5,278 nt of DNA, from IMG/VR virus record IMGVR_UViG_2541047904_000002; one strand, written 5' to 3'. The notes below the pieces were generated by a model. The model saw nothing but the letters and a program-made list of their open reading frames with translations, did no database searches and was not told the origin of the DNA. The translations under genes were made by a program, and so were the position numbers. Source of the stretch: a virus. Its lineage: Duplodnaviria; Heunggongvirae; Uroviricota; Caudoviricetes. Positions 3,684 through 5,130 of this stretch are shown here, one piece after another (positions within the stretch are counted from its first letter, which is position 1; each line of letters begins with the position of its first letter).

Positions 3684-4381
3684 TGCAGGATATCCGGCAG
3701 GAAACATTGAATGAATGCACCCGTGCGGAGCAGTCGGCCAGCGTGGTGCTCTGGGAAATCGATCTGACAGAGGTCGGTGGAGAACGTTATTTTTTCTGTA
3801 ATGAGCAGAACGAAAAAGGTGAGCCGGTCACCTGGCAGGGGCGACAGTATCAGCCGTATCCCATTCAGGGGAGTAGTTTTGAACTGAATGGCAAAGGCAC
3901 CAGTACGCGCCCCACGCTGACGGTTTCTAACCTGTACGGTATGGTCACCGGGATGGTGGAAGATCTGCAGAGTCTGGTCGGCGGAACGGTGGTCAGGCGT
4001 AAGGTTTACGCCCGTTTTCTGGATGCGGTGAACTTCGTCAACGGAAACAGCGACGCCGATCCGGAGCAGGAGGTGATCAGCCGCTGGCGCATCGAGCAGT
4101 GCAGCGAACTGAGTGCGGTCAGTGCCTCCTTTGTACTGTCCACACCGACGGAAACGGATGGTGCCGTTTTTCCGGGGCGCATCATGCTGGCTAATACCTG
4201 CACCTGGACCTATCGCGGTGATGAGTGCGGTTATCACGGTCCGGCGGTCGCGGATGAATATGATCAGCCGACTTCCGATATCACGAAGGATAAATGCAGC
4301 AAATGCCTGAGCGGCTGTAAGTTTCGCAATAACGTCGGCAACTTTGGCGGCTTCCTTTCCATTAACAAACTTTCGCAGTAA
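3683..4381 (+). CDS. L: Minor tail (tail tip) protein L, 232 aa, with C-terminal cysteine cluster
   Basis: ORF starting at the ATG that overlaps the M stop by 1 nt. Translation reads as lambda gpL from memory. Cysteines at residues 173, 182, 205, 208 and 212 cluster in the C-terminal 60 residues. Confidence 0.95.
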   Translation: MQDIRQETLNECTRAEQSASVVLWEIDLTEVGGERYFFCNEQNEKGEPVTWQGRQYQPYPIQGSSFELNGKGTSTRPTLTVSNLYGMVTGMVEDLQSLVGGTVVRRKVYARFLDAVNFVNGNSDADPEQEVISRWRIEQCSELSAVSASFVLSTPTETDGAVFPGRIMLANTCTWTYRGDECGYHGPAVADEYDQPTSDITKDKCSKCLSGCKFRNNVGNFGGFLSINKLSQ

Positions 4382-4386
4382 ATCCC

Positions 4387-5130
4387 ATGACAGAGACAGA
4401 ATCAGCGATTCTGGCGCATGCCCGGCGATGTGCGCCAGCGGAGTCGTGCGGCTTCGTGGTGAGAGCGCCGGAGGGGGAAAGATATTTTCCCTGCGTGAAT
4501 ATCTCCGGTGAGCCGGAGGCGTATTTCCGGATGGCTCCGGAGGACTGGCTGCAGGCAGAGATGCAGGGTGAGATTGTGGCGCTGGTCCACAGTCATCCCG
4601 GTGGTCTGCCCTGGCTGAGTGAGGCCGACCGGCGGCTGCAGGTGCAGAGTGATTTGCCGTGGTGGCTGGTCTGCCGGGGGGCGATTCATAAGTTCCGCTG
4701 TGTGCCGCATCTCACCGGGCGGCGCTTTGAGCACGGGGTGACGGACTGTTACACGCTGTTCCGGGACGCTTACCATCTGGCGGGGATTGAGATGCCGGAC
4801 TTTCATCGTGAGGATGACTGGTGGCGTAACGGCCAGAATCTCTATCTTGATAATCTGGAGGCCACAGGGCTGTATCAGGTGCCGTTGTCAGCGGCGCAGC
4901 CGGGCGATGTGCTGCTGTGCTGCTTTGGTTCATCGGTGCCGAATCATGCCGCTATTTACTGTGGTGACGGCGAGCTGCTGCACCATATTCCTGAACAACT
5001 GAGTAAACGAGAGAGGTATACCGACAAATGGCAGCGACGCACACACTCCCTCTGGCGTCACCGGGCATGGCGCGCATCTGCCTTTACGGGGATTTACAAC
5101 GATTTGGCCGCCGCATCGACCTTCGTGTGA
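4387..5130 (+). CDS. K: Tail tip assembly protein K, 247-aa long form: N-terminal JAB/MPN (JAMM) domain plus C-terminal NlpC/P60 domain. Alternative in-frame start at 4531 would give 199 aa.
   Basis: ORF begins 5 nt after the L stop. A complete JAMM motif is visible: E19 in ESCGF, then H68-S-H70-x7-S78-x2-D81 (HSHPGGLPWLSEAD). NlpC/P60-like residues are C121 in DCYTLF and H187 and H199 in GDVLLCCFGSSVPNHAAIYCGDGELLHH. No obvious Shine-Dalgarno precedes 4387, whereas GGAGG at 4515-4519 precedes the in-frame ATG at 4531. Confidence 0.88.
   Translation: MTETESAILAHARRCAPAESCGFVVRAPEGERYFPCVNISGEPEAYFRMAPEDWLQAEMQGEIVALVHSHPGGLPWLSEADRRLQVQSDLPWWLVCRGAIHKFRCVPHLTGRRFEHGVTDCYTLFRDAYHLAGIEMPDFHREDDWWRNGQNLYLDNLEATGLYQVPLSAAQPGDVLLCCFGSSVPNHAAIYCGDGELLHHIPEQLSKRERYTDKWQRRTHSLWRHRAWRASAFTGIYNDLAAASTFV
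4515..4519 (+). promoter_or_regulatory. Internal Shine-Dalgarno-like GGAGG 11 nt upstream of in-frame ATG 4531 within K
   Basis: GGAGG at 4515-4519. ATG 4531 corresponds to Met49 of the long K frame and, as I recall, to the start used in the classical 199-aa lambda K annotation. Confidence 0.45.

Follow-up and report, generated by a model that had tools for sequence, protein, structure and literature searches.

Gene K of a lambda-like siphophage encodes a 247-residue protein with two predicted peptidase domains, and the 199-residue lambda K appears to reflect a G absent from the reference sequence

The open reading frame at positions 4387–5130 of the window, by which we mean the whole stretch of 5,278 nucleotides of tailed-phage DNA that was analyzed, is the K gene of a lambda-like siphophage (all features below are on the plus strand), and its real product is the 247-residue protein that starts at ATG 4387. 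On profile, alignment and model evidence, this protein is a predicted JAMM/MPN+ zinc metalloprotease (E19, H68, H70, S78, D81) fused to a predicted NlpC/P60 cysteine peptidase (C121, H187, H199), and it belongs to the enzymes that assemble the tail tip and are left out of the virion. The 199-residue K of lambda, as judged from sequence comparison, comes from a single G that is absent in the 1982 reference sequence (J02459/NC_001416). We put the probability of this reading as a whole at about 0.9. The long form and both of its peptidase domains are already known, and a 247-residue K is annotated in RefSeq for exactly the same sequence, that of Escherichia phage ev017.

Over the 979 bases tested, the window is 100% identical to ev017 (NC_049948.1/LR597643.1, genus Jouyvirus), where the K annotation is the same as ours (YP_009909582.1), and it shares 96.5–99% identity with phage 21 and with numerous other records of lambda-like phages. 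Its tail genes are H (853 aa), M, L and K, followed by the start of I. The context of K was taken from Pfam matches of the neighboring reading frames (M, PF05939; L, PF05100, 334 bits; I, PF06805) and from the annotation of ev017, phage 21 and lambda, and it is that of a TAPK-type gene, located between L and I and upstream of the central fiber gene J. The segment spanning the L–K junction (equivalents of window positions 4300–4600) is found in 4,332 of 5,426 complete E. coli genomes, with a median of 2 and a maximum of 12 copies per genome, and lambda-type tail modules are thus widespread in prophages.

An in-frame stop codon at 4363–4365 precedes ATG 4387, the first start codon of the frame, which is closed by TGA at 5128–5130 and is intact at 247 codons in 76 of 83 related loci. 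The protein matches the Prok-JAB profile (PF14464) with 52.8 bits (cut-off 25) over residues 4–98, encoded at 4396–4680 (profile positions 4–103 of 114), and the NLPC_P60 profile (PF00877) with 49.2 bits (cut-off 23) over residues 111–224, encoded at 4717–5058 (profile positions 1–105 of 105). Both profiles therefore exceed their thresholds in the 247-residue form, in agreement with the sequence-only reading, which had proposed a JAB/MPN domain followed by an NlpC/P60 domain; the 199-residue form is left with Prok-JAB positions 63–103, and its 23 bits fall short of the gathering score (25). The catalytic JAMM motif, E...H-x-H-x7-S-x2-D, is complete in K, and its residues are conserved in 74–78 of 78 homologues. 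The upstream catalytic glutamate, E19, lies in a P-x-E-x-C-G element and is encoded by GAG at 4441–4443, and the zinc-binding part, H68-S-H70-x7-S78-x2-D81, occupies 4588–4629, both exactly where that reading had placed them; H68, H70 and D81 are invariant (78/78) and S78 is present in 74 rows. The candidate triad of the second domain is nearly invariant, with Cys121 (4747–4749) and His187 (4945–4947) each found in 77 of 78 homologues and His199 (4981–4983) in all of them.

Structure prediction is consistent with these assignments. An AlphaFold2 model of K built on the family alignment has a mean pLDDT of 97.3 and a pTM of 0.91. When its N-terminal half was compared with the PDB using Foldseek, Pyrococcus JAMM1, both by itself and in complex with the ubiquitin-like SAMP2 (5LD9/5LDA), came first with TM-scores to the target of 0.66–0.69, followed by AMSH, Rpn11 and CSN5, as is appropriate for an MPN fold. 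The Foldseek and PDB profile matches of the C-terminal half were MepS/Spr, CwlO, LytE and Acd33800, and the membership of this half in the NlpC/P60 family is backed by the above-threshold profile, the conserved Cys-His-His residues and the similarity to MepS/Spr and Acd33800.

The question on which the length of K depends is whether residues 1–48, which are missing from the 199-residue form, belong to the protein. A full HMMER scan of K against 1.84 billion representative proteins returned 2,741 matches at E ≤ 0.001, of which 1,719 reach E ≤ 1e-10. Of the full-length matches (34–59% identity) within the top 150, nearly all align from query residues 2–15 to their own first 2–30 residues, with few non-fragment exceptions. 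For the alignment, 77 full-length homologues were picked, a set that favors intact N-termini by construction, giving 78 rows with homologues at 33–58% identity to K. Within residues 1–48 of this alignment, G22 and N38 are invariant (78/78), E19 is kept in 77 rows, C21 and F47 in 73 and P17 in 71; the mean frequency of the top residue is 0.45 for residues 11–48 and 0.47 for residues 49–105. The notion that there is no conservation upstream of Met49 thus clearly fails. The column of Met49 itself is occupied by Ile in 50, Met in 11, Leu in 9 and Val in 4 of the 78 homologues, and according to the alignment this position is a buried hydrophobic site and no conserved initiator. More distant relatives give the same picture: a tblastn search of 50,697 phage records matched 1,744, with at least 80% query coverage in 1,721, and the sampled distant matches (27–48% identity), from T1-like, HK97-like, Klebsiella, Pseudomonas, Burkholderia, Ralstonia and Vibrio phages, start at residues 1–8 in most cases.

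Close relatives add evidence at the nucleotide level. Among 68 distinct close sequences, the variable sites of codons 1–48 are distributed over first, second and third codon positions as 4/2/17, and the same third-position bias is seen in codons 49–105 (7/5/22) and 106–247 (10/14/38); by this measure, codons 1–48 are under in-frame purifying selection. In the AlphaFold2 model, residues 1–48 have a pLDDT of 97–98 and form a helix (residues 3–15) and two strands (21–27 and 30–36). The family profile aligns to the solved JAMM proteins 2KKS, 2KCQ and 5LDA from their N-termini, and the P-x-E-x-C-G element of K falls on their E-A-C-G, E-G-C-G and E-V-C-G. Since residues 1–48 carry the catalytic glutamate, helix 1 and two core strands, a product started at Met49, which in the model lacks all of these parts of the MPN fold, would have no folded and active JAMM domain. 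Conservation, codon-position bias, the model and the alignment to solved JAMM proteins agree, therefore, with the earlier proposal that the long start is needed for a complete JAMM site.

In the lambda reference, K is placed at 14276–14875 (199 aa), with 148 nt between it and L. An alignment of lambda with the window and phage 21 shows one base to be absent in the reference, which reads GAGGC-TATTTCC against GAGGCGTATTTCC; the gap lies between lambda nucleotides 14266 and 14267 and corresponds to the G at window position 4521. The missing G splits the reference K into a 76-residue reading frame that starts at 14133 and the 199-residue one. It is present in four independent lambda-derived sequences, namely PV340536 (Lambda), lambda imm434 (OM418626), DE3 (EU078592, from BL21(DE3)) and Lambda_AGU (LC730321), and the K of re-sequenced lambda, with the G restored, has 247 residues and is 98% identical to the window K. 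Exact matches to the deleted version are confined to four of 220 matching phage records (J02459, NC_001416, OR474059 and OR974322). In the E. coli genomes mentioned above, the segment has 10,687 occurrences, the top-ranked matches all having 99.7% identity over a 302-base span, and none of the best matches in the 5,426 complete genomes is 100% identical to the G-deleted version. The absence of the G is most likely a sequencing or reading error, and possibly a mutation private to the sequenced stock. Programmed frameshifting in lambda K was also considered and was rejected, given that the deletion is restricted to J02459/NC_001416 and two exact matches and that independent lambda sequences are intact. 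No published note on the start of lambda K or on the base at 14266 was found in the searchable literature, including papers on re-sequencing, CRISPRi and the K-12 ancestor. The lambda sequence notes of a commercial supplier presumably list a one-base insertion at about 14266.

Two features of this region may be recorded in their own right. The unannotated 76-residue reading frame of lambda (NC_001416, 14133–14363; L003, 1134–1364) consists of 45 genuine K residues and an out-of-frame tail. Within the K coding region, an inverted repeat at window positions 4500–4560 (CUCCGG / CCGGAGG / UUUCCGG / CUCCGGAGG) has a predicted structure of −23.6 kcal/mol and surrounds both the internal ATG and the position of the base absent from the lambda reference. 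It is a matter of speculation that this G+C-rich hairpin could have given a band compression on a sequencing gel, and hence the missing base.

The short annotation persists also in records with an intact sequence. In DE3 and lambda imm434 the reading frame is intact, yet 199 residues are annotated, by similarity to lambdap19, and the protein collection holds large clusters of 199-residue K. One of these (P0058) was traced to a contig, L088, where the 199-residue call stands on a fully intact reading frame of 247 codons; there the gene caller preferred the ATG with a Shine–Dalgarno (SD) sequence over the start equivalent to 4387. The short form has thus been propagated by annotation transfer and by start-site prediction that favors the internal GGAGG. 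The full 247 residues are annotated in the RefSeq entry of ev017, in the phage 21 record and in PV340536, and the top-ranked matches in E. coli carry the label "C40 family peptidase". It could be argued from the annotation of J02459/NC_001416, DE3 and lambda imm434, from the large database clusters and from the SD at 4531 that the 199-residue protein is the sole real K and that the upstream 144 nt are non-coding or form a separate short reading frame. We give this almost no credence: the frameshift in lambda is seen in the reference record and its two exact matches alone, the 199-residue calls include intact 247-codon frames, and residues 1–48 show conservation, codon bias, Pfam and PDB alignments and a confidently predicted fold.

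A different possibility is that the internal start is used in addition to the long one. The sequence-only reading had considered a shorter isoform from 4531 conceivable, and in such a case K would consist of two products, the full-length protein and a nested 199-residue isoform, with an NlpC/P60 domain, a remnant of JAB and a distinct role. What speaks for it is the strong GGAGG at 4515–4519, 11 nt upstream of the in-frame ATG of Met49 (4531–4533), the start of the historical 199-residue annotation. The energy of the duplex with the anti-SD sequence is −9.5 kcal/mol here and +0.7 kcal/mol upstream of 4387; across the window, about 8% of positions reach −8 or less and about 2.5% reach −10 or less. 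The original observation that 4387 has no SD and follows the L stop by 5 nt, while 4531 has a GGAGG, is accordingly borne out, as are all the other positions given there. The GGAGG and the ATG are retained in almost all of the 83 close loci, with one synonymous change touching the GGAGG, and Iyer et al. mention phages with a K homologue of the NlpC/P60 type only (PMC1779556). Retention of the GGAGG is uninformative, however, because it makes up the codons of Pro43 and Glu44 in loci that are 97–99% identical. The region around 4531 has a predicted minimum free energy (MFE) of −23.6 kcal/mol (7th percentile), in a hairpin that pairs the GGAGG; the 11-nt spacing between SD and ATG is long; Met49 is unconserved outside the close group, being Ile in 50 of the 78 homologues; and the fragment would start in the middle of the MPN fold. 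The isoform is thus unsupported and in our estimate highly improbable, and ATG 4531 is most likely not a genuine start. If the isoform did exist, it would take part in tail assembly or in infection with a role of its own, much as in other nested in-frame phage gene pairs.

How the long form of K is initiated is a separate issue. The L stop codon, TAA at 4379–4381, ends 5 nt before ATG 4387, and in the 83 close loci the junction consists of TAA and 5 nt (62 loci, two of which have a different upstream flank), TAA and 4 nt (16 loci) or TGA and 5 nt (5 loci), with an SD in none. Short spacing and the lack of an SD are the geometry of a coupled gene pair, and 81 of the 83 close loci keep the spacer of 4–5 nt. 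Around 4387, the stretch of 60 nt has an MFE of −7.8 kcal/mol (98th percentile, least structured) and a mean unpaired probability of 0.65, and a similarly low degree of structure is predicted at the start of L (−8.3) and at the long start of I (−7.3). According to annotated phage records, five distant phages have kept L upstream of K, and in four of these the two genes overlap or are 1 nt apart (HK633, 1-nt gap; Stevie, ATGA overlap; Erwinia Midgardsormr38, 1-nt overlap; Stenotrophomonas S72, 1-nt gap), KS9 with its 49-nt L–K gap being the exception. In HK633, Stevie and S72 the long K start has its own SD at the equivalent position. A more drastic rearrangement is seen in Stx2a_WGPS4 (AP012538.1, 47821–48220; L097, 1–400), where an antirepressor gene and a terminator-like hairpin separate L and K; there, K has five different N-terminal residues behind a new AGGAG, after which ILAHARRCAPAESCGF is kept. 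The new SD-bearing start followed by ILAHARRCAPAESCGF suggests that evolution rebuilt a start in the same place instead of falling back on Met49.

The geometry of the junction makes translational coupling of K to L plausible in this lineage. Ribosomes that terminate at the L stop 5 nt upstream would re-initiate at 4387, and the unusually unstructured start region would help them to do so. Alternatively, ribosomes could initiate at 4387 independently and without an SD, on an unstructured A-rich leader, by means of ribosomal protein S1 or a standby site. This is compatible with the 4387 region being the least structured of all the starts tested and with K starting alone where L is not adjacent (Stx2a_WGPS4) or across 49 nt (KS9), but an SD accompanies each of those separate starts, while in this lineage there is none and the 4–5-nt spacer has been kept. 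Independent initiation is therefore a somewhat unlikely account, and the two mechanisms are not mutually exclusive.

The likely function of K fits the need for a complete JAMM site. The two-peptidase make-up of K (TAPK) was described in 2006, as was the link between this protein and the ubiquitin-like domain at the N-terminus of I (TAPI); JAB was predicted to cut behind the glycine at the C-terminus of that ubiquitin-like domain (PMC1779556). [quoted passage not shown] Lambda K is essential for tail assembly and is absent from the virion (PMC10721106, PMC12617516 and a CRISPRi preprint), gpK having escaped detection in virions by mass spectrometry (PMC10721106), and the residues of gpI in tails are resolved only from 101 or 134 onward. 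Cleavage of gpI, the absence of gpK from virions and the lack of a resolved gpI N-terminus fit JAMM-dependent processing, and hence a requirement for the full JAMM site. [quoted passage not shown]

The closest known system is lambda gpK itself, the TAPK of Iyer, Burroughs and Aravind (2006), which like the window K combines JAB with NlpC/P60, is nearly identical to it over 247 aa once the re-sequenced lambda is used, and lies in the same gene order, H-M-L-K-I-J. There is no biological difference between the two, and annotation alone sets them apart. The best structural and profile matches are prokaryotic and archaeal JAMM proteins (PfJAMM1 with SAMP2, 5LD9/5LDA; 2KKS; 2KCQ). Like the N-terminal half of K, these JAMM/MPN+ proteases of ubiquitin-like proteins, together with AfJAMM (1R5X), have a minimal MPN fold of about 100–130 aa and the E...HxH...S..D motif, with the glutamate in an E-x-C-G element near residue 20. 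K differs from them in being fused to an NlpC/P60 domain and in acting in virion assembly, and its presumed substrate is a ubiquitin-like domain fused in cis to the structural protein gpI, whereas theirs is a free modifier. The second half of K shares a papain-like fold and the conserved Cys-His-His residues with NlpC/P60 (C40) peptidoglycan endopeptidases, for example MepS/Spr of E. coli, but K is devoid of a signal peptide and a cell-wall-binding domain and is not found in virions, and its NlpC/P60 substrate may be a protein rather than the murein attacked by those enzymes.

Gene I, the presumed substrate gene, overlaps the 3' end of K in a different frame (5028–5130). RefSeq places the start of I in ev017 at GTG 5127 (190 aa), and the annotations of lambda and phage 21 use the equivalent of ATG 5028 (223 aa; L001, 2229–2900), which has an SD duplex of −9.3 kcal/mol. 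The 223-residue form covers positions 2–83 of the Pfam profile Lambda_tail_I with 100 bits and the 190-residue form only positions 26–83, with 69 bits, so that the first strand of the ubiquitin-like domain is probably lost from the latter. The short RefSeq start of gene I is probably wrong, and, on these sequence features, the true start is probably ATG 5028. In the 103-nt overlap of K and I, 9 of the 13 variable sites among 69 distinct sequences are at third positions of the I frame, which are second positions of the K frame, indicating that selection in the overlap follows the I frame. Residues 215–247 of K look weakly constrained by the same comparison, and residues 228–247 are mostly absent in distant homologues (62% gaps).

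The biology of the phage is little altered by these results, as gene K, its two peptidase domains and the long form are all part of the existing literature and of RefSeq. What is added is an account of why the lambda reference deviates, along with the start of gene I, and its practical value is curatorial. The entry lambdap19 of NC_001416 (199 aa) is a truncated reference entry for lambda gpK, and its form has been copied into DE3 and lambda imm434. It has also misled published analysis: a review of 2020 analyzed lambda gpK as "199 in total" and found one peptidase domain only (PMC7291167). Gene I poses the mirror image of the K problem, and few of the records examined annotate both the enzyme and its presumed substrate correctly.
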